Assembly (NCBI GenBank): GCA_045602305.1
Contig: JAZSBJ010000039.1
Location: 1-42,237, forward strand
Length of the DNA stretch: 42,237 bases
Direction of reading: 5' to 3'
DNA from: Eubacteriales bacterium
Lineage (GTDB): Bacteria; Bacillota; Clostridia; Oscillospirales; CAG-272
A program made the translations under genes and the position numbers. The notes beneath the pieces were generated by a model, which worked only from the letters and a program-made list of their open reading frames with translations, was not told the origin of the DNA and ran no database searches. This document shows positions 6,722 through 30,687 of the stretch, piece by piece (positions within the stretch are counted from its first letter, which is position 1; every line of letters starts with the position of its first letter).

Positions 6722-6752
6722 AATATTAGACTTAAAAAAAGGGGGGGTTCCC

Positions 6753-7832: not shown

Positions 7833-7855
7833 ATCGGAAAGGAAGTTTTTTTACT

Positions 7856-11585: not shown

Positions 11586-11706
11586 AAGATTGATCACCTT
11601 TCGCTATTTTTACTTCTGTTTTGGAATTAATTTTATTATAATTCTGTTTTGGAATTTTGTCAAGTCCTTTTCGGGATATAATTCTAAAAAAGGATAAAGG
11701 GTGGCG

Positions 11707-12056: not shown

Positions 12057-12237
12057 TTTTGCTACAGCTCTGTTTTTAGGCAAAAGGGCTAGGCGGATTT
12101 TGAGCAGAATTTTTCGTTCTCGAGCGTGAGGCGTATATGCATACGTCGAGCGATGAGAACGAAAAAAGCAAACAAAAATTAAATTCCAATGGAGAAAACC
12201 GCAAGGTTTTCAACCTTAGACAATGCAAGAAATATAA

Positions 12238-12313
12238 AAGGCGAGAGATGAACTCTCGCCTTTGTTTTGAAAAATATTTTTTGTTTGCGGTTATGCCAAA
12301 ATGCGTCAGCGCC
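12238..12313. repeat. Copy 2 of the ~75-nt imperfect direct repeat. Its hairpin (12238-12263) doubles as the terminator of the five-gene operon.
   Basis: AAGGCGAGAG (12238-12247), loop ATGAA, CTCTCGCCTT (12253-12262). On the minus strand it is followed by TTTTATATTT, immediately 3' of the stop codon at 12314-12316. Confidence 0.7.
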
Positions 12314-15300
12314 TTAGTCCTCGGGGAAGAGGAACTGGAGCGTCAGGTTGCGGCTGTTGGGCCACAGCTGAACGCTTCTGTCAAGGAGCTTGTTGGCTTG
12401 CTTGTTCTTTCCGTCCTTGTTTACAAGGGCGCGAGCCTTTTCCTTGACGGCGTGGATACCGCCATCCGTCCAAAGATAACGGACGACCATATCGTACACG
12501 TTCTTATCCGCGCAACGGAATACCGCACAGGGCGCCGCCTTTTCAAAGGGACGCTCGCTGACTGCCTTAGCAAAGACCTTGGCAATCTGCTCCTCGTTGT
12601 ACGAGGTGAGATATCCGCCGTGGAAGCGGCAGTATTCGTGCTTGGTGGCACGGAATTCCTCAAGATCTCCAAAGAGCTCGGGGTCGGGCTCACGGACTGC
12701 CTTATCCTCGCCAAGCATATTCTCCTTGGCGGTGACGCAGAAGTAGCCGTAGCCGACGACGTTCTGATCGGCGTCACCTCTCTTGGTGTTCGAGGGATCG
12801 CCCCAAGTCACGTCGAGATAGTAGCAATACTTGCCGAGCTTAACGACGTTCCAAGCGTGCGTCTTGCTGACGACCTGACCGCAACAGATACCGACCGACT
12901 GCAAGAGGTACTGTGTCGCAACCGCATAACCGACGCATACGACCTTGTGGTCGACGAGCGCGCTATGCAAGGAGCGAAGCGTATCCTCTTCGCGCACATT
13001 CTGCCCTGCACCGCTGTCAAGACCGACACCGTCGTAGTCGAGGTTGAGGATCAAGCGGCGGTAGATGGTGAGCATCGCTTCGTAGGGATCCGTCTTTCTC
13101 GTGATGCCCTTGGTAAAGAACTTAACGTGGGCGCGAAGCTCTTTTCTGTGCTTCTGCACACGCGCAACGTCCACCTTACCGTCGGCACCGAGGCAACGGA
13201 AGCAGAGCGACAGGCTCTTGACCTTATCGCCCACGTGGCTGTAACGGAAGGTTTCCGTCCAGAAGAATTCGGGATAATCGTAAAGCACGAAGTAGAAGAT
13301 ACGGCGCACGGTCGCAAGCGGCATATCGTAGCACGGAATGGGCTCGTCGCTAAAGTCGGAGATGTGGCGCGCGATCTCGTTGTAAAGACGGATCTGAGGA
13401 TTTCTATCCTCTTCCGCCTCGTGCGGGATCAGCTCGCTTCCCGTCTTGAGCTTTGCGAGCTTGCCGTTCTTCTCGGCTTCGGGCTCCTTCGGTCTTTGCA
13501 TTCCGTCGGAAGCAGAGGAAGTATCGCCCTCGTCGGCACCTGCGTCGGCATCGCCCTCGTCGGGTGTGGTATCTCTTCCGTCGTTGCTATCGTCGTCGCT
13601 GGCGTGCTTGCCGCGCAGATAACGCTTCCAGAAGCGCGGTACGCGGTCGGGATCGTAGAGGGCATCGAGTCCCTCGTTGCCCGATTCGTCATCGTCGCCG
13701 GGGGTGGGAAGGATCTCTTCGGGACCGTCGGGAATGGCGTTTTCCACCACGAAGTCGAAGGAATTTCTGCCCGCATTGTCTGCGATATACTGCTTGATCT
13801 GTTCCACGAGAGGCAACCAGCTATCGGCGATCGCCGCACGGGTAAATTCCGCGCGCTCTGCGGCACCGATGCTGTCGAGGTAGCAAAGCTCCTCGTAGTA
13901 GAGCTGGGCGACTGCGGCAGTCGTGACACAGTTTTCATCTCTGTGCCATACCGAAAGGAGACCGCGCAACACCGCGACAAACATACAGTCACGCGGCAGG
14001 TCGCACTCGACCTCTACGCGGCGATCGGCATACGAGAGGCGGTAGAAATACTCGCTGAGCTCTTGTCCCTCTTCGAGCGAGAAGGGATCTGCGAGCGCAA
14101 AGCCCACGTTCTTCGGAAGCTCTCGGTCGGGGTACTTCTCTGCCCAATAGCTCTTGACCTCGTCGACCATACGGGAGAGGTCCTTATCCTCGCTGACCGC
14201 TTCGACCTGACAGTCAAAGCAGATGTATCTGTGCTCGTCGTAGATCGCATAGCGTCCCGTAACGAGAGGACGCTTACAGAAGGAGCAGTGCGTGGGCTTT
14301 TGCACCTCTTCCTCTTCCTTATCCTCACCGATCTTGCGCTCACAGTTGGCAAGAAGTGCAAGGCTTCCGTCGAGGTCGTATACCGAGGGCAGAGTGTCCG
14401 CGCCAAAGTAGATGTAATGTGCGTCCCCTGCGGGAAGCGTGGGATGCTCCTTGAGCCACTTGAGGTAGTCGAAGATGTAGGAGAACAGCTCCTCCATAAT
14501 GCGCGCACCGCCGTCGTACAGACGGTCGAGAATGCCCACATCCTCATCCGCGTCGTTCACGATGAGGAACTCTGCGACCTTCTCATCCTTTGCGGCGGGG
14601 CTATCTACGATATAGGGGTACAGCGTTTCAACGCATCCCTCGTAGCTCTCGTTGACCGACGCCTTCTCGGTGGGAGAAAGCAGAACGGGACAAACCGCAA
14701 CGCAACGGTAGGTTTCGGGGAACATCGTGCGAAGGAACTCGTTGAGCACGGCAGCAAGGAGCTTTCTCGTGCCGTCCGAGCATTTCTCGCGCGATACGAG
14801 GCGCACCGTGAGGATCTTTCCTGCCGAGAGGCGTCTTGCCTGCTCGTTCACCGTACGCTCGTCGAGATTCGGGTTACCGCCGACGCCTTCCTTAAAGTTG
14901 AGCGTCTGGCTGTTTGCCATCAAGCGATAGAAGCCGTAGGTTTCGCCAAGGATCTCCGCCTTTTCGTATCCGACGTCGATCTCCGCCAGCGTACCCGTGC
15001 TATAGTGATGCACACCGTGAAGCGCGCCCGTATCGGCACGGTCCTTCATCGTGTAGCGGCGAAGGAATGCCGTATCAAGGCAGGAGTTGTTGGTGATGTT
15101 TTCCTGACGCAGGTAAATGGTGCGGCGGTCGGGCGAAATCTTATCGATTTCATACTCGTGGTTGTCAAAAATGATGTACTGACCGGGCAAATACTGCTGA
15201 TATACACGGTCGGGGAAGGTATCGAGCGAGCCGATAACGGTACCGTGGAGCGAAAGCTCGACACGGGTATTGTTGGAGAGCAGCTTCTCGAACACCTCTT

Positions 15301-17770
15301 CAATGCGCAGGAAGGAAACGTGCAGCTCGGTATGAAGCTCGTAGCCGTCCTTGCGCTCGGGCTGAATGATGCTGTAGAAGTTGTATACGGGCTTCTTGGC
15401 GACGGTGTATTCTACTACCTTGCCGCCACTCTTGCTTTCGCGCTTCTCTGCGATCATCTTGGGATCGGACATCAGCTCGGAGAGCAAGAACGCCACGCGG
15501 GCATTGAGGTCGTACGCGGGCTTTGCACCCTTTTCCTTCATCGCGGCGTCAATGCGCTCGGAGAAGCGGGAAATTGGCATACCCGACGCGCTTGCCGTTG
15601 CCTCGCAAAGCAGGCGCAGAAGCAGAATCTTATCGGTGTCCGCGTGCTCGGTCGCACGGGGCTTGATGAGGTCGGACTGGTTGACGTACATTTCCACGCG
15701 GTCGCCGAAATACTCACGGAGCAGATACGGGCGGCTGAGAATGTGCAGAATGGACGCTTCTCTGCCGTGGAAACGGGTGTACGCATAGATGGCGGCGGCA
15801 AGGTTGCAACGGTCATCGGTGCAGATCATATAGTTGACGTTCGGCACCTGCTTGTGGAAGAGGTTGATCTCCACGTCGTGCGCCTTGAAGTTCTGCTTTT
15901 CCGCAGGGCTAAGCGGAACGCTCGTCAGAATACGAATGCCGTCCACGCGCGCCCCGTACGCCGCCTCGGCGATGAGGGACTCGATGGTCGTTTCGCTTTG
16001 ACCGTCCTTGTTGTAGAGGACGTTGCTCTCACGGTTCCAAAGCATATAGGAAACGTGCTCGTTTTCCTCTGCACTGTTGCAATCCACGATCTCCTCGTCA
16101 ATGCAGAAGAACTTGCGAAGGCTTGCGGAGAAGCCCTGAAGCACGTCGCGCGAGAGGAACATAAAGCGGATCTTTCCATCCGTCGCCTCTTGCAAGCGGC
16201 ACGCCATAATGGTGCAAAGGTAGCTGTTGAGGTTGAGGATCTTGTCGGCGTCCACGAAAACGGCGTTGCAGGCTTCCTCAAAGAAATAAGGATAGTTTTC
16301 GACAAGGTTGTCGGTTGCAAAGTCCTCGGGTACACCGACGAGGACGTCTGCCTCGTTGATGTGATGGGAGTCTGCACTGTAAACGCGCCAGGTTTCCTCG
16401 CGCGTGACACCCGTGATCTCGGTCAAGCGGTTACCGATGTATTGCTGAAGACCGACCACCTTGCTTCTGTCGGAAACGATAAAGATGATTCTCTGTCCCG
16501 AAAGAAGTCGCATATAGGTATAGGAGATGATATACTCGCCCAGCTGAGAATAGAAGGAAGAACCGAAATACACGTGTCGCTCGTTGAACACCGCGTCAAG
16601 ACCACTCATATAGTTTTGAATGACCTTGCCGTAGTTGTTCTTCATATACGAGCTGATATACCCCAGCGCGTCCTTGTAGATCTCGTTGGTACAGAGATAC
16701 TCAGCCACCTCTTTGGACTCGGTGGCGGGGAAATAGCGAATGCTGTGGTTCTTGGCAAAGCGGCGCAGAATGTCGCAACGCAGCTTGTCAAGACCAATCT
16801 TCTTTTTCTCTTTTTCTTCCTTTTCCTCGATCTTGATCTTACGCTTGGTTTCCACGGGGGGCTTGCAGGGCGCACGGAAGGTGTTGCAAAGCTCTTGCAA
16901 GAGGATAATGGAAACAAAAGGATAGATGTACATCTTCGCCGTTACCCAGTTGAGAATGGTGTAAACGATCTCGGGCAGGGGGAAGAATACGGCGAGAAGC
17001 AGAAGGAAGAACAAAACGGCGTACAGCGCTTCTACAACGTAGATGAAGAACTGCACGACCGCCGTTGCGGCGTGCACGAAGCGGCGCGCGTGCTTGAAAT
17101 CGGGGGCTTCAAAGAAAAGACCCCAAAAACCCATATAAATACGGTAAAGGAAGGGATGGTCCTTACGGAACTTCTCGTCCTCGGCGTGCGTCTTGCGCTC
17201 GGCAAGCGCCTTTTCTTCCTCGTCGGCGGCAGACTTTTCTTCCTCGTCATCCGTCTTCTTGCGGCGTGCGCGGAAGAAGACCGAGATGCGGCGGGGCTTT
17301 TTCTTGGTTTCGCCTTCGTCGCCCGTGGCAGCGTCCTCGCCGTCCGTCTTTTTCTTCTTTTTAGACTTCTTCTTTTTCTTGCGGAAGCCAAAGATAACAC
17401 CGAGCGCACCCTTTACAAACGCCTTTAAGAACAGAAGCAAATAAAGCGTCACGAGGTTCAAAAGCAGAACCTTAAAGAGCACCGAGCTTCCAAAGGTGAG
17501 AGAGGCGGATGCTCGCGAGAGCAGCTTTGCGATAAAGGGCACGGATGCAATCGCATTTGCCACCGAGAAGATGGCGCCGTATACCACGGCGAGCGCCACG
17601 AACTCAAGAACCGTCAAAAGAACGAAAAATGCGTTCAGTCGGTTGTTGGGCGCGTCATAGCGAAGTCCGTAGAAGGTGGAGAAGCGTCTTAACTTCTTGG
17701 GAAGCGGGAGAAGCGGGAGAAAGAGGAGCAATACCGAACAAATGATAATAAGGATCTTTACAGCTGTCAT
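12314..17770 (-). CDS. Giant (1,818 aa) polytopic membrane protein. Contains a degenerate SF2-helicase-like module, a CxxC...CxxC zinc ribbon, an acidic linker and a C-terminal transglutaminase-like cysteine protease core.
   Basis: - N-terminal ~310 aa has several TM helices split by a K-rich then D/E-rich loop (RKKKKKSKKKKKTDGEDAATGDEGE...).
- Helicase-like blocks: RIIFIVSDRSKV (Ia-like), VLVGVPEDF (Ib-like), AVFVDADKIL (DEAD-like), FMFLSRD (III-like), YMICTDDRCNLAAAI (V-like), FHGRE (VI-like). No GxGKT Walker A is present anywhere.
- Zinc ribbon HCSFCKRP...YICFDCQ at nt 14207-14290.
- TGase core VVCVGYAV...THAWNVV...YYLDVTWGD.
- The ATG lies 5 nt after the upstream stop. Confidence 0.9.
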   Translation of the reverse strand: MTAVKILIIICSVLLLFLPLLPLPKKLRRFSTFYGLRYDAPNNRLNAFFVLLTVLEFVALAVVYGAIFSVANAIASVPFIAKLLSRASASLTFGSSVLFKVLLLNLVTLYLLLFLKAFVKGALGVIFGFRKKKKKSKKKKKTDGEDAATGDEGETKKKPRRISVFFRARRKKTDDEEEKSAADEEEKALAERKTHAEDEKFRKDHPFLYRIYMGFWGLFFEAPDFKHARRFVHAATAVVQFFIYVVEALYAVLFFLLLLAVFFPLPEIVYTILNWVTAKMYIYPFVSIILLQELCNTFRAPCKPPVETKRKIKIEEKEEKEKKKIGLDKLRCDILRRFAKNHSIRYFPATESKEVAEYLCTNEIYKDALGYISSYMKNNYGKVIQNYMSGLDAVFNERHVYFGSSFYSQLGEYIISYTYMRLLSGQRIIFIVSDRSKVVGLQQYIGNRLTEITGVTREETWRVYSADSHHINEADVLVGVPEDFATDNLVENYPYFFEEACNAVFVDADKILNLNSYLCTIMACRLQEATDGKIRFMFLSRDVLQGFSASLRKFFCIDEEIVDCNSAEENEHVSYMLWNRESNVLYNKDGQSETTIESLIAEAAYGARVDGIRILTSVPLSPAEKQNFKAHDVEINLFHKQVPNVNYMICTDDRCNLAAAIYAYTRFHGREASILHILSRPYLLREYFGDRVEMYVNQSDLIKPRATEHADTDKILLLRLLCEATASASGMPISRFSERIDAAMKEKGAKPAYDLNARVAFLLSELMSDPKMIAEKRESKSGGKVVEYTVAKKPVYNFYSIIQPERKDGYELHTELHVSFLRIEEVFEKLLSNNTRVELSLHGTVIGSLDTFPDRVYQQYLPGQYIIFDNHEYEIDKISPDRRTIYLRQENITNNSCLDTAFLRRYTMKDRADTGALHGVHHYSTGTLAEIDVGYEKAEILGETYGFYRLMANSQTLNFKEGVGGNPNLDERTVNEQARRLSAGKILTVRLVSREKCSDGTRKLLAAVLNEFLRTMFPETYRCVAVCPVLLSPTEKASVNESYEGCVETLYPYIVDSPAAKDEKVAEFLIVNDADEDVGILDRLYDGGARIMEELFSYIFDYLKWLKEHPTLPAGDAHYIYFGADTLPSVYDLDGSLALLANCERKIGEDKEEEEVQKPTHCSFCKRPLVTGRYAIYDEHRYICFDCQVEAVSEDKDLSRMVDEVKSYWAEKYPDRELPKNVGFALADPFSLEEGQELSEYFYRLSYADRRVEVECDLPRDCMFVAVLRGLLSVWHRDENCVTTAAVAQLYYEELCYLDSIGAAERAEFTRAAIADSWLPLVEQIKQYIADNAGRNSFDFVVENAIPDGPEEILPTPGDDDESGNEGLDALYDPDRVPRFWKRYLRGKHASDDDSNDGRDTTPDEGDADAGADEGDTSSASDGMQRPKEPEAEKNGKLAKLKTGSELIPHEAEEDRNPQIRLYNEIARHISDFSDEPIPCYDMPLATVRRIFYFVLYDYPEFFWTETFRYSHVGDKVKSLSLCFRCLGADGKVDVARVQKHRKELRAHVKFFTKGITRKTDPYEAMLTIYRRLILNLDYDGVGLDSGAGQNVREEDTLRSLHSALVDHKVVCVGYAVATQYLLQSVGICCGQVVSKTHAWNVVKLGKYCYYLDVTWGDPSNTKRGDADQNVVGYGYFCVTAKENMLGEDKAVREPDPELFGDLEEFRATKHEYCRFHGGYLTSYNEEQIAKVFAKAVSERPFEKAAPCAVFRCADKNVYDMVVRYLWTDGGIHAVKEKARALVNKDGKNKQANKLLDRSVQLWPNSRNLTLQFLFPED
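12812..12937 (-). other. Predicted transglutaminase-like catalytic triad (Cys 12935-12937, His 12857-12859, Asp 12812-12814)
   Basis: Codons were located by hand: TGC in D-H-K-V-V-C-V-G-Y, CAC in T-H-A-W-N, GAC in Y-L-D-V-T-W. The spacing (C, 26 aa, H, 15 aa, D) and context (G-x-C-x-G-[FY]-A ... H-A-W ... D) fit the transglutaminase-core superfamily. Confidence 0.75.
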
Positions 17771-17775
17771 TGCTC

Positions 17776-19767
17776 TTACATTCTCCTTTCTTCAAAGATG
17801 TCTTCGATCACGTCAATGGTGAAGACCTTGTAAATGCGGTTTAGGCGGAAGGATTCGTTGATCTTGAACTCGTCGTCATCGAGGGCGGCCCCACCGTCCG
17901 CCTTGTGGGCGATCTGCATACTCGTGAGCATACCGAGCAGAACGTCGCGCACACGCTCAAGCATCTCTCGATGCTCTTCGATGTGGCGGTTGATCTCACG
18001 GTTTGCTTCGTAAAGGATCGCAAGCTCGGCAAGCTCGTAGTGAATGCTCTCCACCGCAGGCAAATATGCGGTGTAGCGCTTGCGCAAGCGGAAAATGCTT
18101 TGTCTTTGCTTGACAAGGCAGGCTTCGTGCAGGTCCGTCATCTCCAGCTTTGCAGAACGGATATCTCGCAAAATGGGAATCACGTGAAGCAAAGCGGAAA
18201 GCACGAACACACCGCCGAACACGGCAAGAGCAATCGAGAGAAGCACCGTTGCGCCAAGGTTCGAATCCTTGATCTGGAACACGAAATAGGGCACGAGCAT
18301 CGCAAGCATCACAAGGAAGAAGCAAACGATGTTGGTGCGAACGTATTTCTCGATGCGTGCCTTGCCCGAAAGATATTTATCTCTTGCATCGTTCGCCTTA
18401 GCAAACTCCTCGGTGTAATCTGCGCCGTCGTAATCGGCGTCGATCGCTGCCTTGAGAATGCGGCGCATCGTGACCTTTTTCTTCTCTACCGCGTTCTCAT
18501 ATTCAAGTCCCGAGGGATACTTGCTTTGCTTTTTCGCCTCGCGAAGCAAAAGTCTTGTATCCTGCTCGGTGGCGTGGTTTCTCATCTCGTCGCGGCGTTG
18601 CTTGTATTCGCTCATATAGCCCGCAAGCTCGCGCTTTTCTTCCTCGCTCTTGGTTCCTGGGGGAACGGACGCCATCTTTTTGATGGCGGCATAGCGGTCT
18701 TCAAAGCTCGTCCCCTTTGCTGCTGCGATGACTTCCATTTTTTCTTCATCGCTCATCGCATCCACGCAAATGTCGTCCGAAACGCTCTCGCGGGTTTCGA
18801 GCACGTAGAAGCCGTTGGCAGTACCACTTTGACGAACAAGCTCCAAGGCGCTTTGCACCTTGCCATAGGAATGGCGAAGCGTGTCAAAGAAGCGCTCCTT
18901 GTTCATCTGGGGCACGTCTACCACGTCATCTCTGCGGTCAACCGAAAGCTCAACCTCCTGCTCGTAGGCGCGAATCAGTGCCAAGGAGAGGTTAAGGTTA
19001 TCAAAGGCGGCACGGCTCTCGCTTCTTGCGGACGCCGTTCCCGCTACGTAGGTGCGGGAGCGCGAGCCGAAGGCGCGGTACGCGATATCGTATTTTTCCG
19101 CAAGGTTGCGGTAGAAGGTGTCGAAGCTCGCTTCCTTCTTTTTTCCGATGTCCTTGCAGAAATCCTCGGCACGGAACACGAGCTTTCCACCGCGATACTC
19201 TGCCGAGAAGGTTTCATAGAGCGTGGGCCCCTTTTCTTCGGGGGCGGGCTCTTCCTTTTTCGATGCCTTCTTTTCACCCTTTGCGGGGGCTTCCGTTTCG
19301 CGAGGGGCGCGCTTTTCCGCCACAATACGGTCGTGCTCGTCTTCCAGACCTAAAAGAAGCGCAAGCTGTTCCTTTTCCGCCGCATTCTCGCGAATGGTAT
19401 TCTTTTCGGTGTACTGAATGTAGAACACCTCCATACCGTCAAAGCCGAGCTGGGCGCGGCGAAGCGGCGTGTAGAGATGGTCGTTCAAATATATTTCTAT
19501 CAGCGACTTGTAAATAGCGAGATATTCGCTGACGGGATTCTCCTCGGGAAAGAGCGTTTTTTCAAACGCCAAAAAGTCAACAAGCACCACCACGCGGTAT
19601 TCGCCCGCGGTCATCGGCTGTTGACGCTTTACGATCTCCTCGGCACAGTCCTCAATGTTAGCAAGAGGACTCCGCATCCAAGCGATCTTATTATATCCGA
19701 CGAGCTCAAAAAGCAGATCGGTCTTGAGAACCTTATTCTCCGATGTATTGATTACGTAGGTTAACAT
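17776..19767 (-). CDS. Hypothetical 663-aa protein with a transmembrane hairpin (aa ~478-532, nt 18172-18336) between large charged, helix-rich regions
   Basis: AAAGGA ribosome-binding site. No recognisable family motif. TM segments are TNIVCFFLVMLAMLVPYFVFQI and ATVLLSIALAVFGGVFVLSALLHVIPIL. The stop is 5 nt before the next ATG, suggesting translational coupling. Confidence 0.8.
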   Translation of the reverse strand: MLTYVINTSENKVLKTDLLFELVGYNKIAWMRSPLANIEDCAEEIVKRQQPMTAGEYRVVVLVDFLAFEKTLFPEENPVSEYLAIYKSLIEIYLNDHLYTPLRRAQLGFDGMEVFYIQYTEKNTIRENAAEKEQLALLLGLEDEHDRIVAEKRAPRETEAPAKGEKKASKKEEPAPEEKGPTLYETFSAEYRGGKLVFRAEDFCKDIGKKKEASFDTFYRNLAEKYDIAYRAFGSRSRTYVAGTASARSESRAAFDNLNLSLALIRAYEQEVELSVDRRDDVVDVPQMNKERFFDTLRHSYGKVQSALELVRQSGTANGFYVLETRESVSDDICVDAMSDEEKMEVIAAAKGTSFEDRYAAIKKMASVPPGTKSEEEKRELAGYMSEYKQRRDEMRNHATEQDTRLLLREAKKQSKYPSGLEYENAVEKKKVTMRRILKAAIDADYDGADYTEEFAKANDARDKYLSGKARIEKYVRTNIVCFFLVMLAMLVPYFVFQIKDSNLGATVLLSIALAVFGGVFVLSALLHVIPILRDIRSAKLEMTDLHEACLVKQRQSIFRLRKRYTAYLPAVESIHYELAELAILYEANREINRHIEEHREMLERVRDVLLGMLTSMQIAHKADGGAALDDDEFKINESFRLNRIYKVFTIDVIEDIFEERRM

Positions 19768-19896: not shown

Positions 19897-22800
19897 TTAT
19901 TCTTCGGAAGCGGGTGCCTCAGCCACAGGTGCTGCGGGAGCAACGGGGGCTACGGGAGCTTCCTTCTTGGGGGTATCTAAGCCGCGGCTCTTGCGGACGT
20001 TGCCCACGCAACGGTCCATACGTTCGGCTTGGAATGCATTGAAGTCGAAGGCTCTCTTTGCCCACTTGCCCTTGCCGGGCTCTGCGGAAGGAACGATCTC
20101 CATAAAGCAGCCTGCACGGTTTGCAAAGTTGAACATCATCTTTGCGGTATCGAGTGCGGTTGCCTCGGGAATGTCCTCGTCGCAGAACATTTCAGCAACG
20201 AAGTAGTCAAGCTCCCACATATAAACCTCGGCAAAGAGGTCGTCGGACGAGCTGACAACACGCTCACAGAGATCCCAAAGGAGATCGCTGACGACAGCGA
20301 GGATCTTCTCGGCGTCGTTGCAGTCGTAGCCGCCGCGGCTCTCCTCCTCAACCTTGATGGCGTATGCGAACTCGAATACGCTCTTGTTGAGCTTCTTTTG
20401 GAGAACCGTCTTTGCGGAAGAGCCTGCCGATGCGTTGGCAAGCATCGTTTCGAAGATGTTTCTTCTGAGCATCGAGAGATACTTGGTGGTGGTCAGCTTT
20501 GCCTTTGCGGCAGGGATCTCGTGTGCAAAGCCCGTCTTGGGAAGCACGGAGAGCTGATCCTCGACGTTGCGGTCGAACTCAGCGCACCACTTCTCGATCT
20601 TATCCTCTTGAGGACGGAGCCAAGCGATCAGTCCGATGAGGTTGTTCTCGTCGACAAACTTGCCGTCGCCAACGATCTTCTCGCCCGCATAGCGGAACGC
20701 CTTGTCGGAGTACTCGGCGCTGTAGGACACCTCGCCGTTCATAATCGCATAAAGGAGCGCCTTAAAGAGCTTCTTATCTGCCTCAGCCTCGAGATCGGGG
20801 TTGATGAAGGGCAGGTAGCCGCGCTTGTGCCAGTTGAAGCCAAGGTGGGGGAACATACTGTCGTTCTTCTGATCCTCACCGATCTTAACTGCCTCAAGGT
20901 AACGCTTGTAGTAGCCGTCTTCTCCGCTCTTCTCGTTCACCTTAACGATATCCACCGAGTTAACGCTCATAAGCGCGCGGCAGATAAAGATGGTATTCTG
21001 GGGAACGGTGTCCTCGATACGAACGAAGGATTCGGGGCAGAATCTCGTAACGAGGTCGTCGGTGCAAGCCGCACTCGGTGCAATGCCGAAGCGGTCGGTG
21101 TTCTTTTGGAGATAATCCTCTACCTTCTTGGGAGCGAGCACGACGCCCTGCGTCTTGTGCATACCGCCCGACTTGACCTGAAGGGCAGGCTTCGCCATTT
21201 CGAAGGCGGTGAGGATCGCTGCCTTTGCGGCGTCGTATTCCTTGCCGCGGTTCTCCTCGGCAAGCACCTCGAATACGTTTCTTCCGCAGAGGGAGATGCA
21301 GTAATCGCTCTTCTTGATCTGCTCGAGGTTGGACTTCTTCATCGTGTCGAAGACGGCAGTCGCGTCAACGCGATCCTCTTCTTCCATCGTGCCCTTCTTC
21401 GCGCAGGACATCTTATAGGCGATCTCGAACACGCCTGCACCTGCAATCGAGATGCCCTCGCGCTCGTCTGCCATATTGTCTTCCATCAAAAGCTCGTAGT
21501 GACGGCGGCGCTGTTCTACGGATGCACCGACGTATACGCAAGAGGTGTCGGCACCCTTTGCCTTATCCTCTTCGGCTCTCTTGACCTTATCCTTAAGGCG
21601 ATCCTTCTGCTCTGCAAAGCGGCCGAAGAATGCGCGGTAGCTCTCGATCATCGCGTCGATACGGCTCTTGAGCGTTTCGATGGTCTTGCGAATGATCATC
21701 TCGCCTGCATCCTTCATCAGGGTGGTGAGGAGCATATCGCCGTCCTTCTTGAGTGCTTCGCTATCTACGGAGTAGTCGGTCTTCTGTGCCTTGAAGCCCT
21801 CGGCAAAGGAAGAATCAAGCATCGTGGAGAAGCGCGAGCTTTCGCCCTTCAAGTATGCACTCTTTGCGGCGCGGCTTCCAAGGTCGAGCGTGTCGATGTC
21901 GGCGCACTCAAGGAAGTCGTGAGGAAGATTGCCGATCTCATAGGAGCCGACGTCCTTCCACTCCTTGCCCTCAAGGGCGGCACCCTCTGCCTCAAGAAGC
22001 AGACGGAAGGAGCAAAGCTGAAGCATTGCGGCAACGGGATGGATGTAGTAGCCGTCCTTTGCGAGAACGTTCTCAACAAAGGAGAGCTTGCGGTTTGCGG
22101 TGGGATCCTTCTTGGGATCCATAGGAAGGATAGCGTCTGCTACGACGTTGAGCTGACTGTTGATCTCGTCGACTGCCAGCTTGTAGTATGCGTTGAGCGC
22201 CTTATCGTAGATCTCGTTTGCGATCTCCACGACCTGACCTGCCTTGCTTTCCTTTTCGCCCTTACCTGCGAAAAGACCTGCCGCGGGAATGACGTCGATG
22301 TCGCTGATGACGTCGATGTACTTCTTATTTTCGGGCGCAAGTGCCTTGAGGGCTTCCTTGGTCGCCTTCCAATATTCGCCGAGAATGTCGAGCGTGACAA
22401 ACTCGTCACCCTTTTGTACCGTGGGCTTCACGGCGTTCTTGAGCATCTCGGTGATGTTGCAGGTGGGCGTGCGTGCCTCTGCCTCTTGTGCGTCGGTGTA
22501 GAGCTTTGCGTAATCCTTTACCGTCAGGTGATACTCCTTACGCATCTCCTTTGCCTTTTGACGCTTCTCTGCGATCTGCGTTTCGGTTGCGGTGTGCAGA
22601 ACGAGCCAAGCACCCTCGGCATCGGACTGCGTCTTACGCCAAGCAAAGTACTCCAGCATCTCGTCGATGGGGTAGTGGATCTCGGAAGAGCCGATGCCCG
22701 CGAACATACAGTTGTGTCCCGTTTCGTTGGCACGCTTCTTTTCCTCGTTGGACCAGATGGAGTCAAGCTCGCCGCCTGCCTTGGTACAGATGAGGGAGTA

Positions 22801-23688
22801 AAGGGTGTTTGCAAGTGCCTCGTCGTGCGCGATGATGGAAGAAACGTTGACGATCTTCTCCATCATACAAACGCGCTCGAAGGGAGCCGCCTCAGGCGTC
22901 CAGAATGCGGGATCCTGAGAATCGAAGAGCACGCCCACGGGGCTATCCTTGGTGCCGATGTGGAAGCGGACGGGAGTACGTCCTGCACGGGCAACCTCGC
23001 CTCTGCCATTGTCGTAGGTAGATGCATTCAGTCCGTATACGACCTGGTTGATGGCGTTCAGCTCGCGAAGGATCGCGTATGCGTTCGCATAGATGCTCGT
23101 GATGTTGGTGCGGTCACCACTCTGTTTGCCCTCGTAGATGTCGGGGCAAGCGAGAAGGGCGCGCGCGTGGATGGTGGTCTTCTCACCGAACTTCTCACGG
23201 ATGAGCTTCTTGACGTAGAGCGTCAGAGGAATAAAGCTACCCGAGCCCGTGCCGCCTGCAAGAGAGGCAACGGTGTAGATGTCGATGTCGATCGAGGGGT
23301 TGGTCTTGTCGGCAAGTCTTTCGATCGCCTGCTCAAGAACGGTTCTCTGTCTTCCGTTCATTGCATTGAGGAAGGCAAGATAGGACTGTTTTCTCCACTG
23401 ACCTGCACCGATCGAGATGTTGTTGCTGTCAAAAATGGAGTCTGCGGGGAAGAAATCGCCCCAAACGGATTCGCCAAGGCGCTCCTTGACCGTTTTTACG
23501 GTCACGTTATCCGAGAGAGAAACGATGGTTGCGGCATCGATGTTCTTTTCGTCAGCCATATTGGTATCGAGCACGATGGAAACGATGTTGACATCGCCCT
23601 GCTTACCCATCTTGTCGATCTTCTTTTGCAGCATATTTGCCGCACGGCTGCCGGTACCACCGACGCCAAGGATGAGGACACTCTTCAT
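19897..23688 (-). CDS. Giant tubulin/FtsZ-superfamily GTPase-like protein, paralog B (1,263 aa)
   Basis: - N-terminus MKSVLILGVGGTGSRA resembles the FtsZ T1 loop GVGGGGxN.
- ASLAGGTGSGS at aa 141-151 contains AGGTGSG, which matches the PROSITE tubulin signature [SAG]-G-G-T-G-[SA]-G.
- About 900 further residues have no motif I recognise.
- Pro/Ala/Glu-rich C-terminal tail ...KKEAPVAPVAPAAPVAEAPASEE.
- AAGGAGA ribosome-binding site. Confidence 0.85.
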   Translation of the reverse strand: MKSVLILGVGGTGSRAANMLQKKIDKMGKQGDVNIVSIVLDTNMADEKNIDAATIVSLSDNVTVKTVKERLGESVWGDFFPADSIFDSNNISIGAGQWRKQSYLAFLNAMNGRQRTVLEQAIERLADKTNPSIDIDIYTVASLAGGTGSGSFIPLTLYVKKLIREKFGEKTTIHARALLACPDIYEGKQSGDRTNITSIYANAYAILRELNAINQVVYGLNASTYDNGRGEVARAGRTPVRFHIGTKDSPVGVLFDSQDPAFWTPEAAPFERVCMMEKIVNVSSIIAHDEALANTLYSLICTKAGGELDSIWSNEEKKRANETGHNCMFAGIGSSEIHYPIDEMLEYFAWRKTQSDAEGAWLVLHTATETQIAEKRQKAKEMRKEYHLTVKDYAKLYTDAQEAEARTPTCNITEMLKNAVKPTVQKGDEFVTLDILGEYWKATKEALKALAPENKKYIDVISDIDVIPAAGLFAGKGEKESKAGQVVEIANEIYDKALNAYYKLAVDEINSQLNVVADAILPMDPKKDPTANRKLSFVENVLAKDGYYIHPVAAMLQLCSFRLLLEAEGAALEGKEWKDVGSYEIGNLPHDFLECADIDTLDLGSRAAKSAYLKGESSRFSTMLDSSFAEGFKAQKTDYSVDSEALKKDGDMLLTTLMKDAGEMIIRKTIETLKSRIDAMIESYRAFFGRFAEQKDRLKDKVKRAEEDKAKGADTSCVYVGASVEQRRRHYELLMEDNMADEREGISIAGAGVFEIAYKMSCAKKGTMEEEDRVDATAVFDTMKKSNLEQIKKSDYCISLCGRNVFEVLAEENRGKEYDAAKAAILTAFEMAKPALQVKSGGMHKTQGVVLAPKKVEDYLQKNTDRFGIAPSAACTDDLVTRFCPESFVRIEDTVPQNTIFICRALMSVNSVDIVKVNEKSGEDGYYKRYLEAVKIGEDQKNDSMFPHLGFNWHKRGYLPFINPDLEAEADKKLFKALLYAIMNGEVSYSAEYSDKAFRYAGEKIVGDGKFVDENNLIGLIAWLRPQEDKIEKWCAEFDRNVEDQLSVLPKTGFAHEIPAAKAKLTTTKYLSMLRRNIFETMLANASAGSSAKTVLQKKLNKSVFEFAYAIKVEEESRGGYDCNDAEKILAVVSDLLWDLCERVVSSSDDLFAEVYMWELDYFVAEMFCDEDIPEATALDTAKMMFNFANRAGCFMEIVPSAEPGKGKWAKRAFDFNAFQAERMDRCVGNVRKSRGLDTPKKEAPVAPVAPAAPVAEAPASEE
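23239..23259 (-). other. Tubulin/FtsZ G-box (T4 loop) signature AGGTGSG in paralog B
   Basis: Codons mapped by hand: gca ggc ggc acg ggc tcg ggt on the minus strand. Confidence 0.85.
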
Positions 23689-23768: not shown

Positions 23769-26700
23769 TTATGCGTTTGCCTGTTCCTCATCCGATACGA
23801 TGGGAGCCGCCTTTTGGGGCTCTCCCTCGCTCTTGGCGCGGTTTTTGGCTACGCGATCCAAGGACGAGATTCGCTCGTTAAGAAATTCGGAGAGATTGAA
23901 ATCTCTCTTTTCCCACTTTTGACTGGGATCTCGGCTGGGGACGATCTCCATAAAGCTGCCCGCGCGGTTGGCAAAGTGCAAGAGCGCCTTGACAACGGCG
24001 ATGCGGTCGGCTTCATCCTCAGGCATATCGTCGTCCATATACATCTCCGCAACGAAATAGTCAAGCTCCCACTCGTAAACTTCCTTGAATTGGTCCTTGT
24101 CGCTGCTGATGACACGCTCACACAGCTCCCAAAGGAGATCGCTGACGACCGTGAGGATCTTTTCGCCGTCGTTACAGTCGTAGCCGTAATGACCCTCTTC
24201 CTCGGTCTTGATGCGATATGCAAATTCAAAGATGTTCATATCGAGCTTCTTCTTGATCTTTGCATACTTCTTCTCGTCCTCGGGGCGCAGAGCTTCCTTG
24301 CCCGTCGTCTTGAAGAGGTTTTCAAAGATGTTTCTGCGAAGCATCTTAAGATACTTGGTCTGCGTCAGAGCCGTCTTTGCTCTGCCGATCTGATGCACGA
24401 ATCCTGCGGACGGAAGCGATGCAAGCTGCTCCTCAACGTCGCGGTCGAACGCTTCGCTCCACTGCTCGATCTTATCGTCCTGCGGACGGAGCCAAGCGAT
24501 GAGTCCGACGAGGTTGTTGTCGTCCACGAACTTACCGTCGCCCACGATCTTCTCGCCGTCGTAACGGAAGGCAAGGTCGCCGTATTCCTTCTTGAAGGAA
24601 AGCTCGCCGTTCAAGAGAGCGTAAAGCAGTGCCTTGATCATCTTCTTGTCGGCGGCAATCTCAAGCTCGGAATTGATGTAGGGAAGGTATCCGCGCTTAT
24701 GCCAGTTGAAGCCAAGGTGCGGCAGCTTGCTGTCGTCGGTGTAGCCCGAGCCGTCACCGCACTTGGAGTAGTCGGAACCTGCCATACGAACGGTATCAAG
24801 ATAATACTTGTAATAGCCGTCCTCAAGGTTGCTTTCGTTGACCTTGATGATGTCGATGGAGTCAACGCTCATCAAAGCGCGGCAGACGTAAATGGTGTTT
24901 CCGGGAATGCCCGCTTCCAAGCGCACGAGGGCGTTTTGGCACCATTTGCCGATGAGGTCGTCTGCACAAGCACGCGCGTCGCCGCCACCGATGGAAATAT
25001 CAAAGGTGGAGCTGTTGGCTTCGAGATACTCCTCGAGCTTTTCGGGAACGAGAACGACTGCCTGTTCCTTCTGCATACCCGTTTCCTTAACGCGTAGCGC
25101 AGGCTTTGCCATTTCGTATGCGATGGAGATGATCTTGCGACCGACCTCGCTCTCCGCACCCGTGTTTTCGTCCGCGATCACCTCAAGGACGTTCTTTGCG
25201 GCGATCTCTTGATAATAATCGGAGCGCTTGATGGCTGCCTTGTTGGCGTCGTACATTGCGGAGAAGACACCCGTTGCGTCGATCTTGATGTCGTCCTCTG
25301 CCTTAAAGCGCTTGGCGCACGCCATACCGTAGGTGATGGTAAAGACGCCCTGCCCTGCAATGCCGTTGTCTGCGGCACCCGACATCATATCGCCAACGAG
25401 GCGCTCATAATGCTTTCTGCGGCTCTCAACCGAGGCGCCGACGTAAATGCAAGAGGTTTCCGAGGAGCGCGAGCGCTCAAGCTCTGCTCTCTTGACGCGG
25501 TCTGCAAGACGCGTCTTTTGCTCGGTGAAGCGACGGAAGAAGGAGCGATAGGACTCGATGAGCGCATTTGCGCGGTCCGCGACTGCCGTAAGCACGCGGC
25601 GCAGAAGAAGCATCGTCGCCTGATTCTTGAGCGAGGTCAAAAGCAGGTCGCCGTCCTTGATGATCGCCTTATTGTCCGTTTCGTAATCCGTTCTTTCCTT
25701 GGCGTACGCAACTCTGCCCGCTTCGGTGAGAAGCTCGACGAAGCGTGCCTTTTCCTTTTTGAGGTAGGCGCTTCTCGATGCTCTTGCACCAAGGTCGAGC
25801 ACGCTCGTATCGTCGGTGCAGTCGAGAATTTGGAAGGGCAAGGAGCCGATCTCAAAGGAAGAAAGGTCGGGCCACTCGATGCTGTCCATTCTTCCCAGCT
25901 CGTCCTCGATCGCCAAGCGGAGCTTACAAAGCTGCATCATTGCCGCGACGGGGTGGATGTGCACGCCGCCACGCAGAAGCACGTTGTTCACAAAGGAAAG
26001 CGAAAGGTTTGCCGTGGGATCCTTTTTAAGATCGAGGGGCAAGACCGCGTCGGCGCAAACGCCCGACTGACTGCGGATCGCCTCAACCGCTTTTCTGTAA
26101 TAATCGTTTAAGTAATCGTAAACCTCTTCCGCATTGTTGCAGACCTGCTGTGCGGCGGTTTCCTTGGCACCCTTTGAGGAGAAGAGGACGGGGTTCTTTA
26201 CGGGATTGATGTCCGACGCGATCTGTGCGGCGATGTCGCTGTGATCGGGCACGAGCGCTTCCAGCGCCAGCTTTAAGCGCTTAAAGTATTCGTCAAAGAC
26301 GAATTTTTGCTCTTCCTTGCCGTCGCGGCGCTCGTAATACCTCGTCGCGGCGCGGATGATCTCGGTGATGTTGCCCGTTTCGGTGCGCTCTTCGGCGCGC
26401 TGCGCCTCGAGGAAGAGCTTGGCGTACTCCTCGGTGGTGAGGTGGTATTCCTTACGCATCTCCTTGGCGAGCTTGCGCTTTTCGGTGATCTGCGACTCGG
26501 TGGCGTTGTAAAGGGAAAGCCATTCGCCCTCTACGTCGTCACGCGTTTTGCGCCACGCGAAATATTCAAGAAGCGTATCAATCGGATATTGGATCTCAGA
26601 AGAGCCTATGCCGGCGTACATACAATTATGTCCCGTTTCGCCTGCACGCTTCTTTTCCTCGTTGGACCAAATGCCGTCAAGCTCTCCGCCGGCTCTCGTG

Positions 26701-27599
26701 CAGATAAGCGAATAAAGAATGTTCGCCATCGCCTCGTCGTGTGCGGCGACCGAGGAAACGTTGATAATCTTCTCCATCAAGCACACACGCTCAAAGGGTG
26801 CGGCGGTGGGAGAATGATATTTTTTGTTTTTGGAATCGAACAGAACGCCGACAGGGCTCTCCTCACTTCCAAGACGGAAGTTGACGGGGGTTCTTCCGCG
26901 GCGTGCGCTTTCGCCCTTACCGCTGTCGTACTCCTCGCCGTTGAGTCCGTATACGACCTGGTTGATACCGTTCAGCTCACGCAGAATGGCATATGCATTT
27001 GCGTAAATGCTCGTGATATTCATACGGTCGCCGTTCTGCTTTGCCTCGTAAATATCGGGGCACGCAAGCATTGCTCTTGCTCTGACAGTCGCATTGGGGA
27101 ACATCTGACGCAGTCTTTTCTTGACGTACAGCGTCAGGGGAATAAAGCTACCCGAGCCCGTGCCACCCGCAAGGGAAGCAACGGTGTAAATGTCGATCGA
27201 GAAGGTCGCCTGCGTTTGGTCAACGAGCTTCTGCAAGGCGCTGTCGAGGTCGTTGCGGCGAATGGTGTCGTTCATCGCGTTGAGAAATGCGAGATACGAC
27301 TGCTTGCGCCACTGCCCTGCACCGATGGAAAGATTGTTCTCGTCGTACTTATGGTCCTTCGGGAACCACTCGTTGCATTGCGCACCGAGGCGATTGCGGA
27401 CCATACCTACCGTTGCATTCTCCGAAAGAGAGATGACGGATGCCGAGTCGATATTCTTTTCATCCGCGGCGTTGGTATCAAAGACGACGGAAACGATCTT
27501 GACGTCTTCCGTCTGCCCTGCGCGGGTGATCTTCTTTTGCAAGAGGTTAACTGCTCGGCTGCCGGTTCCGCCGACGCCGAGAATAAGAACGCTCTTCAT
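23769..27599 (-). CDS. Giant tubulin/FtsZ-superfamily GTPase-like protein, paralog A (1,276 aa)
   Basis: Same N-terminal GVGGTGSR and ASLAGGTGSGSFIPLTLYVKK blocks as paralog B. It is collinear with B over the full length, roughly two-thirds identical by eye in the first ~400 aa, with many synonymous differences at the DNA level. Acidic tail ...KAAPIVSDEEQANA. AAGGAGA ribosome-binding site. Confidence 0.85.
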   Translation of the reverse strand: MKSVLILGVGGTGSRAVNLLQKKITRAGQTEDVKIVSVVFDTNAADEKNIDSASVISLSENATVGMVRNRLGAQCNEWFPKDHKYDENNLSIGAGQWRKQSYLAFLNAMNDTIRRNDLDSALQKLVDQTQATFSIDIYTVASLAGGTGSGSFIPLTLYVKKRLRQMFPNATVRARAMLACPDIYEAKQNGDRMNITSIYANAYAILRELNGINQVVYGLNGEEYDSGKGESARRGRTPVNFRLGSEESPVGVLFDSKNKKYHSPTAAPFERVCLMEKIINVSSVAAHDEAMANILYSLICTRAGGELDGIWSNEEKKRAGETGHNCMYAGIGSSEIQYPIDTLLEYFAWRKTRDDVEGEWLSLYNATESQITEKRKLAKEMRKEYHLTTEEYAKLFLEAQRAEERTETGNITEIIRAATRYYERRDGKEEQKFVFDEYFKRLKLALEALVPDHSDIAAQIASDINPVKNPVLFSSKGAKETAAQQVCNNAEEVYDYLNDYYRKAVEAIRSQSGVCADAVLPLDLKKDPTANLSLSFVNNVLLRGGVHIHPVAAMMQLCKLRLAIEDELGRMDSIEWPDLSSFEIGSLPFQILDCTDDTSVLDLGARASRSAYLKKEKARFVELLTEAGRVAYAKERTDYETDNKAIIKDGDLLLTSLKNQATMLLLRRVLTAVADRANALIESYRSFFRRFTEQKTRLADRVKRAELERSRSSETSCIYVGASVESRRKHYERLVGDMMSGAADNGIAGQGVFTITYGMACAKRFKAEDDIKIDATGVFSAMYDANKAAIKRSDYYQEIAAKNVLEVIADENTGAESEVGRKIISIAYEMAKPALRVKETGMQKEQAVVLVPEKLEEYLEANSSTFDISIGGGDARACADDLIGKWCQNALVRLEAGIPGNTIYVCRALMSVDSIDIIKVNESNLEDGYYKYYLDTVRMAGSDYSKCGDGSGYTDDSKLPHLGFNWHKRGYLPYINSELEIAADKKMIKALLYALLNGELSFKKEYGDLAFRYDGEKIVGDGKFVDDNNLVGLIAWLRPQDDKIEQWSEAFDRDVEEQLASLPSAGFVHQIGRAKTALTQTKYLKMLRRNIFENLFKTTGKEALRPEDEKKYAKIKKKLDMNIFEFAYRIKTEEEGHYGYDCNDGEKILTVVSDLLWELCERVISSDKDQFKEVYEWELDYFVAEMYMDDDMPEDEADRIAVVKALLHFANRAGSFMEIVPSRDPSQKWEKRDFNLSEFLNERISSLDRVAKNRAKSEGEPQKAAPIVSDEEQANA
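27150..27170 (-). other. Tubulin/FtsZ G-box signature AGGTGSG in paralog A
   Basis: Codons mapped by hand: gcg ggt ggc acg ggc tcg ggt on the minus strand. Confidence 0.85.
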
Positions 27600-30600: not shown

Positions 30601-30687
30601 CTTGGCGGTGACGGAGCCTGCAGGCAGAAGCGGCAAAAGCAAAACCGCCGCAAGCAGAACCGACAAAAGCCTGATCTTGAGTTTCAT
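27670..30687 (-). CDS. Secreted, single-pass membrane-anchored von Willebrand factor A (vWA) domain protein (1,005 aa)
   Basis: - Signal peptide MKLKIRLLSVLLAAVLLLPLLPAGSVTA.
- MIDAS motif in VSVLFDNSGSM (DxSxS, nt 30538-30552), with the later LVVLTDG strand typical of vWA.
- About 600 aa of T/V/G-rich, beta-type sequence.
- One TM helix IVSYIWRILLILYIIQLIVLALTF (nt 28168-28239).
- A 165-aa basic C-terminal tail (nt 27673-28167). Confidence 0.88.
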   Translation of the reverse strand: MKLKIRLLSVLLAAVLLLPLLPAGSVTAKEEQASYTKNKIVSVLFDNSGSMKNDGGTVYRWEYAKYALQTLMTTLGKNDKLIITPMNKSGSTDNVKDYTDSSVIEVNLSAEDREAEIRRVINTSFFAQNPTGQTPPKGIEVAVDQLVNRYGMKLTTEVAADEQSENEYFLVVLTDGAFTGIGGDVNKTAALFEEDLSKYAFFQSIYIGFDVNALDLRDASSLQDKANFTAYKAANTSEIGGVMESVANRITGRYPLAIHADANSKTIRIPLSDVGFSLRTVTVMATNTNARPDESILPTYNGAAVSVSQEAAFDSPVNEMKGGFTTVLSRGTSGTFSGGEIVLTLDEAPGANAVISVLLEPALTLEPLIEVNDGGGRKAVDAAYINSHMKKGDTVYLSYKIVEQDTGKVIDPSAIGGTTSARVTYDTKSYEPGEPVTLAEGKKEIGISVSMLDGQYTLYAAFPCVVLENPSFFRIEHGDVDIQNTTTYKTTFSVFSDNQKITALSVLETFRPTVAVTTEDGSEFQNFRMDKNANGTFTVTLDLSGKEYGTYTVTASVKDAEGNPRTVDVPIGYYPSGLVLTNTGAGNLSCTLHEILDNQDAFRFELTAQETKIPFDNALLTYRLTVGGVDVTKHAVCDGNVLTYAPTAASLGELAKKTGEHDVLLTATFRGATVETVECKLEKAIKLTDTVFEVVPLAPTGSVDRFALKKNQSTISFKVLRDGIPLSEEELTAALEDGTLYLDHSAYKTFLSPVRATLTVESVGGVPVLTVLPTGGQFFLLRGLVTSMLVFGDALDMDVHYGSVNAVGTISLAKASIVSYIWRILLILYIIQLIVLALTFGKVKRIPKGVFVRVPILDYTVDETELKGKVIVVKRLGLFDYLILKRFLPFVGLCFWSKDITTSEGTLKYHQNAGVCTAAGIKCLEGELKPSGAIVSSTLKNKGWASLKPGASFTFNKTALSSVKVKITPKTAKASIDQPLTGTRGLVLKTKFYLFVSARAVGKYK

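Follow-up and report, generated by a model that had tools for sequence, protein, structure and literature searches.

What does a protein built like a DNA helicase do at the membrane, at the end of an operon of tubulin-like genes? This question is raised by a locus of the Eubacteriales bacterium assembly GCA_045602305.1, in positions 1 to 42,237 (in nucleotides, nt) of contig JAZSBJ010000039.1, the stretch that we call the window. The gene in question, the target, is the open reading frame 12314..17770 (reverse strand); it encodes 1818 amino acids (aa) and is the last gene of a five-gene operon spanning 30687 to 12314 on the same strand. A first-pass annotation of the window had listed six features in the product (transmembrane (TM) helices broken by charged tracts, helicase-like blocks, a missing P-loop, a zinc ribbon, an acidic linker and a transglutaminase-like core) and we found all six where it had placed them. 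This inventory was incomplete, in that a zincin domain and an array of domains resembling the WH, OB, CON and MZB domains of MrfA were overlooked. With these included, the protein joins a membrane anchor to a helicase of the DNA-repair/defence kind in an ATPase-dead copy, a metalloprotease that is likewise dead and a cysteine-protease-like domain, the last apparently active. We consider it fairly probable that the target is the membrane-tethered peptidase output of an FtsZl1-vWA system, the pseudo-helicase serving as an ATP-independent scaffold or switch.

Each of the protein's domains has a known fold, and operons of this class had been predicted before. The literature, as far as we found, describes neither the architecture nor its invariant place in the gene cassette, and the domain combination that the first-pass annotation did not recognise gave no characterised protein of this architecture in our literature and database searches either.

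A family of unnamed proteins from gut and rumen Clostridia

Among 5.8 billion proteins searched, 48 are close homologues of the target protein, 35-99% identical to it, mostly full length and all unnamed; one homologue, P0077, lies on a 300-kb contig of assembly GCA_900104495.1. When the GTDB species genomes were scanned, we obtained 47 target-type loci, every one of them in metagenome-assembled genomes (MAGs) of gut or rumen Clostridia, labelled Oscillospiraceae, Christensenellaceae, Eubacteriales and others; the nearest locus is 89% identical. Over this whole range of identity (35-99%), the full-length homologues keep the feature order of the target protein. The match of the listed features is far beyond chance. 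We also observed that one Oscillospiraceae SIG648 MAG (loci L002 and L004) contains the complete operon twice; the target proteins of the two copies share 59% and 89% identity with the 12314-17770 product.

Predicted fold of the helicase-like region

We modelled aa 300-1150 of the target with AlphaFold2, using a 47-sequence alignment as input. The model has a predicted local distance difference test score (pLDDT) of 86.3 and a predicted template modelling score (pTM) of 0.86, and gave the following features together with the alignments:

16091..16885, reverse strand: Lys/Glu-rich linker, NTR-like element and RecA1-like lobe, aa 296-560 (AlphaFold2, Foldseek)
aa 306-347, reverse strand: long helix and short strand, NTR-like (AlphaFold2 secondary structure)
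16532-16576, reverse strand: P-loop position, aa 399-413, HVYFGSSFYSQLGEY, within the RecA1-like lobe
15656..16090, reverse strand: RecA2-like lobe, aa 561-705, with D652, N656, S679, Y682, L684 and R685 (AlphaFold2, Foldseek)
15455..15655, reverse strand: small helical domain at the position of the MrfA winged helix, aa 706-772 (AlphaFold2, MrfA alignment, PMC7797055)
14786..15454, reverse strand: beta-rich region with very long antiparallel strands at the position of MrfA OB and CON, aa 773-995 (approximate boundaries)
14321..14785, reverse strand: acidic alpha/beta domain at the position of MrfA MZB, aa 996-1150 (net charge about -13)

Compared with the PDB by Foldseek, the model gave 360 matches at E <= 0.001, and the best 50 were all superfamily 2 (SF2) helicases. 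The SF2-like call of the first-pass annotation was therefore correct at the level of the fold, with lobes of RecA1 and RecA2 type. Four MrfA entries top the list, 6znp_A with an E-value of 5.4e-22 over about 900 aligned columns and a TM-score of 0.52 on the target; the other SF2 helicases (RecQ1, Pol theta, Hel308, Mtr4, Brr2) were found at about 1e-8, some 13 orders of magnitude worse than MrfA. The domain order of MrfA is NTR-RecA1-RecA2-WH-OB-CON-MZB (PMC7797055) and the order of predicted elements in our model is the same, a comparison made at the level of the fold. On this model, the helicase-like region is specifically MrfA/YprA-like across its accessory domains and not a generic SF2 module.

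Searches at the level of sequence gave another picture. With E-values up to 10 allowed, Pfam gave no helicase or DUF1998 signal for the full-length protein or for three segments of it. NCBIfam gave none either, nor did the PDB when searched with the target sequence alone and with two family profiles, and the retrieved loci contained no SF2 helicase ORF; the only real NCBIfam and PDB matches of the target are those of its C-terminal transglutaminase-like module. The MrfA/YprA helicases (B. subtilis MrfA, 6znp; relatives DrmA/DrmB, DruE, ArmA) are thus the best structural match, and one that reaches beyond the RecA pair, but the differences are considerable. MrfA has a Walker A Lys (K82), a DELH motif II and a four-Cys MZB cluster, and the target has none of the three; unlike MrfA/YprA, it is membrane-anchored, fused to peptidase domains and without a Pfam or PDB sequence match. 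It is also encoded with tubulin and vWA genes, whereas YprA-like helicases are encoded with nucleases or methylases. DISARM, Druantia, Dpd and ARMADA all have YprA-like helicases at their core (preprint 10.1101/2025.09.15.676423), and the same survey of the YprA family does not mention tubulin, transglutaminase or membrane-anchored forms.

Loss of the ATPase motifs

Helicase-like blocks are found at aa 427-438, 476-484, 504-511, 538-542, 649-661 and 667-671 and are conserved across the 47 homologues, among which R427, F484, D507, F538, D652, N656, L657, F667 and G669 are invariant. The first-pass annotation had read them as motifs Ia, Ib, II, III, V and VI. In the model, blocks Ia, Ib, II, III and V lie at strand ends or in loops, and they follow one another as they should in a RecA1/RecA2 pair. 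The assignment of motif VI (FHGRE) is doubtful; S679-x-P-Y682-L-L-R685, which is superfamily-invariant and follows the next strand, is a better candidate.

In the model, the place of Walker A is taken by the loop between the strand at aa 399-402 and the helix at aa 409-423, which reads GSSFYS; the motif I site of the target, between the first RecA1 strand and helix, is FGSSFYSQLGEY. No conserved GxGK[ST] or GxxxxGK[ST] exists across the 47 aligned homologues. For the wider superfamily, a profile of the helicase module was searched against 1.84 billion representative proteins (50% identity clusters), which gave 459 clusters, 275 of them at E <= 1e-10. The superfamily consensus at the motif I site, [FIV][DN][AD][SP][FL][YF]S[ED][FL]GEY, is acidic and has no Lys/Thr pair, and among the matches listed, none of about 110 inspected proteins of at least 1,000 aa carries a Walker A there. 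The absence of a P-loop, already reported from the target alone, is thereby borne out, with no GK[ST] at the site in the target, its homologues or the inspected superfamily members. Motif II of the target is VFVDADK, without the Glu or His of DExH, and its D507 is kept in 26/49 superfamily members, while the RecA2 residues D652, N656, S679, Y682, L684 and R685 are invariant or almost so across the superfamily. Taken with the fold, the lack of Walker A at the motif I site and the variable motif II Asp across the superfamily indicate a complete MrfA/YprA-like chassis whose ATPase chemistry was probably lost early in the history of the family.

One could still suppose that the module is a motor or nucleic-acid-binding unit with a non-canonical nucleotide site, by which DNA or RNA would be translocated or anchored at the membrane. 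The retention of the full MrfA-like canopy, which encircles single-stranded DNA in MrfA (PMC7797055), speaks for it, as does the conservation in RecA2, where the positions corresponding to motifs V and VI vary least in the whole superfamily. We nevertheless regard it as very improbable: about 150 inspected members have no Lys/Thr pair at the P-loop site, the motif II Asp varies, and the operon contains no nuclease or other DNA-related partner. In addition the RecA1, WH-like and MZB-like domains are net acidic, and binding of nucleic acids by this acidic helicase-like core is somewhat less likely for that.

The zinc ribbon and a degenerate zincin-like domain

14210..14287, reverse strand: C4 zinc ribbon CSFC-x18-CFDC, C1162/C1165/C1184/C1187 (Cys conservation)
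13736..14188, reverse strand: degenerate zincin-like metallopeptidase domain, aa ~1195-1345 (hhalign, superfamily alignment)
13952-13966, reverse strand: HExxH-equivalent site R1269-G-L-L-S1273 (alignment to HELTH paralogues)

The CSFC and CFDC pairs of the zinc ribbon lie where the first-pass annotation had put them, with a spacer of 18 aa and not the 17 it had counted. The four Cys are kept in 45/45 aligned homologues and in 49/49 superfamily members. The ribbon is weakly similar to the ClpX zinc finger (PF06689; Pfam E 0.0085, with 16.4 bits where the cut-off is 27; PDB 1ovx, E 0.14). We also considered whether it could be the DUF1998 cluster and rejected this: an acidic stretch of low pLDDT, a disordered linker, separates it from the MZB-like domain, this domain has no four-Cys cluster (C1023 and C1027 alone are partly conserved), and the ribbon always stands before the zincin domain. 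The PF09369 (DUF1998) hidden Markov model (HMM) had no match in the target.

Most of the superfamily members listed are ~1270-1320 aa long and have a zinc ribbon followed some 110 residues on by HELTH, and the C-terminal regions of these paralogues match the zincin families DUF6782, BSP and SprT-like. By hhalign, IAHELTHIWQ of the HELTH paralogue P0049 falls over VLRGLLSVWH of the target, with a probability of 75% and an E-value of 2.6e-5. In the 49-sequence superfamily alignment the HExxH columns contain H in 28/49, E in 33/49 and H in 31/49, next to an invariant W1275; the target clade has R, G and S at these columns. The predicted order of strands and helices in the target fits a zincin fold, with weak Foldseek matches to selecase and IrrE (E 0.3-1.8). 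From the alignments, the domain appears to exist in an active form (HExxH) in the shorter paralogues and in a dead form (RGLLS) in the target.

The C-terminal module resembles TglA

13364..13735, reverse strand: acidic disordered linker rich in Asp, Gly and Glu, aa 1346-1469 (composition; pLDDT <50 except in the island)
13610-13660, reverse strand: island LYDPDRVPRFWKRYLRG, LYDPxxxPRFWKRYLRG, aa 1371-1387 (near-invariant L1371, P1374, P1378, R1379, K1382)
12317..13363, reverse strand: TglA-like transglutaminase-fold module, aa 1470-1818 (PDB 9crn, Foldseek, triad)
12935-12937, 12857-12859 and 12812-12814, reverse strand: Cys1612, His1638 and Asp1653, the triad (aligned with C/H/D of 9crn)

A transglutaminase core with these Cys, His and Asp codons had been proposed for the C-terminus, and the proposal was exact: the three residues are present in 42/42 homologues that reach the C-terminus and align with those of 9crn, the S. 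pyogenes protein TglA. Nearly the whole chain of TglA is covered, with an E-value of 1.1e-11 from the single sequence, 7.1e-27 from the family profile and 3.5e-49 from the superfamily profile. Foldseek also matched the module to 9crn (E 1.4e-13, TM-score 0.67), and NCBIfam MAG6410 matched it at 3.5e-13. For PF01841 the target remains below the Pfam cut-off (17.3 vs 23 bits) and a distant orthologue passes it (27.4 bits). TglA is a stand-alone protein, whereas the corresponding ~340 aa of the target are fused to a 1470-aa membrane and pseudo-helicase part. After TglA, the next structural neighbours are 3isr, which is a putative cysteine protease, and with it a bacterial transglutaminase, PNGase and LapG.

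How this module came to its place is suggested by the superfamily. Two members, among the matches listed, have HELTH and the transglutaminase-like domain together. At locus L054, a 352-aa Transglut_core gene (13798-14856) with its own Cys/His/Asp starts inside the stop codon of a HELVH-type gene, and by its sequence this pair looks like a split version of the target fusion; upstream of it we noted a type IV secretion system (T4SS) coupling protein gene and a ClpP-like gene. A history in which a stand-alone TglA-like gene was fused onto a pseudo-helicase/zincin protein, and the zincin then decayed, would fit these arrangements. Because the transglutaminase-like domain takes the place of the zincin of the paralogues, and because of these fused and split forms, we read it as probably the catalytic output of the target and a peptidase.

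The domain could instead be a true transamidase which makes Gln-Lys cross-links, on the poly-Lys tract or the tubulin-like proteins, and so builds a membrane-attached cytoskeletal lattice. Its Cys-His-Asp triad is that of cross-linking transglutaminases, TG2, TG3 and factor XIII appear weakly in the Foldseek list, a conserved Lys-rich tract lies within the target protein itself, and its partners are polymer-forming proteins. However, the paralogues have a zincin peptidase in the place of the domain, the strongest structural neighbours other than TglA are putative cysteine proteases, LapG or PNGase-type hydrolases, and we identified no Gln-rich acceptor region. We therefore judge cross-linking unlikely and keep to peptidase activity as the preferred reading.

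The linker before the module is acidic and of low pLDDT, as the first-pass annotation had described, and it contains a conserved island that was overlooked. We observed that this island, aa 1371-1387, is predicted with high confidence amid low-confidence surroundings; it may be a docking or autoinhibitory peptide.

Membrane anchor and topology

16886..17770, reverse strand: polytopic membrane domain, aa 1-295, ~5 TM helices (hydropathy and charge counts)
17126-17413, reverse strand: disordered loop, predicted to be cytoplasmic, K-rich then D/E-rich, aa 120-215, carrying 30 K/R and 20 D/E

The hydrophobic segments of the target lie at about aa 3-21, 45-63, (66-84), 97-115, 231-263 and 276-295, and relatives have 4-6 N-terminal TM segments. 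The tract FRKKKKKSKKKKKTDGEDAATGDEGE interrupts them, within the loop rich in K/R and D/E, and hydropathy and charge counts agree with the earlier description of TM helices broken by a basic and then an acidic tract; the Lys-rich part of the loop is conserved. By the positive-inside rule, the N-terminus would be outside and the C-terminus inside. The large C-terminal part, including the transglutaminase-like domain, is likely to be cytoplasmic, in view of the zinc ribbon and of the K/R-rich loops on either side of the TM segments. The first-pass annotation had thought of envelope targets; with this charge distribution and the zinc ribbon placing the domain in the cytoplasm, targets outside the cell are unlikely.

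The operon is of the FtsZl1-vWA type

27670..30687, reverse strand: first operon gene, 1005 aa; signal peptide, vWA, Ig-like repeats, one TM helix (~aa 810-839), cytoplasmic tail
23769..27599, reverse strand: giant tubulin-like protein A, 1276 aa (Pfam PF13809, 2.4e-36; 57% identical to B by blastp)
19897..23688, reverse strand: giant tubulin-like protein B, 1263 aa (Pfam PF13809, 7.4e-32; Tubulin_2 GTPase domain aa 5-351)
17776..19767, reverse strand: upstream partner, 663 aa, two TM helices (aa 479-536); stop codon 5 nt before the target ATG
12237..12263, reverse strand: terminator-like hairpin, 11-bp stem and T tract, ~50 nt past the target stop codon, probably the end of the operon

The 1005-aa protein has the metal-ion-dependent adhesion site (MIDAS) DNSGS and LVVLTDG (VWA_2, E 0.001), its Ig-like matches being weak. 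In every locus with enough upstream flank, the tubulin gene or genes, the gene for a ~600-760-aa protein and the target gene are adjacent, and a large vWA-type gene precedes the cassette wherever the flank reaches so far. The gene of the 663-aa type and the target gene overlap in relatives, and synteny of the cassette extends to a 22%-identical orthologue and to HELTH-type relatives. The target being a fixed member of a tubulin operon, its earlier description as the effector or hub of this operon is reasonable. With the vWA protein, the 663-aa protein and tubulin A, PDB sequence searches gave no match.

We observed that tubulin-like proteins A and B both have a ~900-aa C-terminal extension without a recognisable domain and a flexible Pro/Ala/acidic tail. 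The tandem pair calls heterodimeric tubulins to mind; in more distant cassettes there is one such gene.

FtsZl1 (Tubulin_2)-vWA operons were defined by Makarova & Koonin 2010 (PMC2875224). The target operon is of this type: it shares with them a Tubulin_2 gene beside a vWA gene with an intact MIDAS, signal peptide and TM helix, and both have lineage-specific membrane proteins. The partners named in that work are GTPases, kinases and OmpA-type proteins, with no helicase-like or transglutaminase-like component, and the target operon differs further in that its tubulin-like proteins are ~1270 aa long and duplicated. A second resemblance is to the GAP1-N2 GTPase-centric tubulin systems of Firmicutes (Kaur et al. 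2020, PMC7159879), which like the target operon have two long-tailed tubulins and a vWA protein that carries TM helices and exposes its vWA domain outside the cell. These systems are defined by a zinc-ribbon GTPase, GAP1 and an FNIII-repeat protein (PMC7159879); none of the five operon genes had a Pfam GTPase or FNIII match, the 663-aa protein not having been compared with a GAP1 HMM. The pseudo-helicase/peptidase protein is not mentioned in PMC7159879, nor did we find the target architecture described in the literature on tubulin with transglutaminase or on tubulin-like defence systems.

The cassette could be an antiviral or conflict system, in which the vWA protein or the pseudo-helicase senses infection (e.g. 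DNA entering at the membrane), tubulin-like polymerisation sets a threshold for the signal and the effector is the peptidase. Such a view bears on the biological role and would leave intact the molecular reading that we favour. It draws on the central part of YprA-like helicases in DISARM, Druantia, Dpd and ARMADA (10.1101/2025.09.15.676423) and on the proposal that tubulin and vWA neighbourhoods are conflict systems (PMC7159879). Two distant cassettes stand right after Card1/CARF-PD-DExK nuclease genes, one of them also near two TIR genes, but the CARF link rests on these two loci, out of five HExxH-only cassettes with a readable upstream flank. Other cassettes lie beside a D5_N primase or a T4SS coupling protein, suggesting mobile elements, and two copies occur in one MAG; yet target-type loci are mostly flanked by housekeeping genes (rpsB, tsf, frr, polA, DAHP synthase), with synteny kept among relatives. 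When the five operon proteins were compared with PADLOC-DB 2.0 (5027 models), none had a match, and the acidity of the helicase-like core also speaks against such a role. On balance we see an antiviral function as possible and, at present, doubtful.

A model for the target protein

In the reading that we prefer, the target would form a complex with the tubulin-like GTPases and with the 2-TM protein, to which it is translationally coupled. It would lie downstream of the extracellular vWA protein, the probable input. The helicase chassis would hydrolyse no ATP and would work as a clamp, scaffold or conformational switch for a partner or ligand at the membrane, and the transglutaminase-like domain, having presumably replaced the ancestral zincin peptidase as the catalytic part, would cleave proteins in the cytoplasm or carry out a related amide-bond reaction. 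Its candidate substrates are the tubulin-like proteins, at their flexible C-terminal tails, or other components of the cassette.

LapG (with LapD) and the vasohibins offer a functional analogy; LapG and the vasohibins are transglutaminase-fold cysteine peptidases with no specific sequence relationship to the target. The activity of LapG, which is among the weak Foldseek matches, is gated by a membrane signalling protein, and vasohibins trim the C-terminal tails of tubulin. A likeness of the target to such tubulin-tail processing is speculation by analogy. A broader idea would make the four-to-five-gene cassette an undescribed membrane machine, in which a helicase chassis from DNA-targeting immunity, now a sensor or clamp independent of ATP, links the polymerisation of tubulin-like proteins with regulated proteolysis, as a new form of bacterial immunity or a counterpart of tubulin-tail processing; we give this only a small chance of being right.

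Several points weigh against the reading of the target as a membrane-tethered peptidase with a pseudo-helicase scaffold. The function of any member of the family is predicted from sequence and models. The word peptidase depends mainly on the displacement of the zincin; enzymes of the transglutaminase fold also catalyse cross-linking, deamidation and deglycosylation, and in the literature on S. pyogenes TglA (9crn) we found no published function. Descent from YprA is deduced from fold and architecture, as sequence methods give no link, and the helicase motifs were placed by the predicted order of secondary-structure elements. Because the cleft residues are highly conserved, a non-canonical nucleotide site may persist. 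Finally, the topology is a prediction from charge and hydropathy.

FtsZl1/Tubulin_2 systems were predicted in 2010 and, to our knowledge, their function is still not known. They now have an invariant partner in a large protein family (459 clusters at 50% identity), which would bring a concrete, testable chemistry, that of a membrane-tethered peptidase whose catalytic domain was apparently swapped from zincin to transglutaminase-like in evolution. By the literature searched, this would be the first ATPase-dead, membrane-anchored helicase chassis of the YprA/MrfA type from a context other than nucleic-acid targeting, which bears on the diversification of this defence-associated helicase family. 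The cassette is widespread in gut and rumen Clostridia.

Genes around the operon and its relatives

Within the window the operon is flanked by polA, sbcCD and metA, with synteny kept among relatives. On its left are sbcD, sbcC and polA (6462-10459, forward strand; 2081-4633, forward strand), in an order conserved in the closest relatives; on its right are methionine-biosynthesis and 2-oxoacid:ferredoxin oxidoreductase genes. We considered the window locus as a defence island and rejected this, the flanks being housekeeping genes.

10524-11597, reverse strand: 357-aa multi-TM gene with its own 12/12 sigma-70-like promoter (11663-11635), G+C fraction ~0.45

This gene, which lies directly downstream of the operon, is found in no related locus, including the 89%-identical one, and has a weak Csx27 match (E 0.012). 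It looks like a recent insertion; we rejected it as a part of the system for its absence from the 89%-identical locus, its low G+C content and its own promoter.

Card1/CARF-PD-DExK nuclease genes lie directly before the distant HELTH-type cassettes of loci L048 (747-1961) and L051 (850-2076), and in L048 the two TIR-domain genes are downstream of the cassette. In one subclade, with loci L023 (16015-19952), L036 and L041, the target gene is followed by three genes on the same strand, of ~410, 285 and 600-700 aa. None of them belongs to a Pfam family, a sub-threshold TrkA_N match being obtained on the largest. They may be an optional extension of the system, absent from the window. The largest one is homologous to the 697-aa gene present in the distant L048 cassette (14889-16982).

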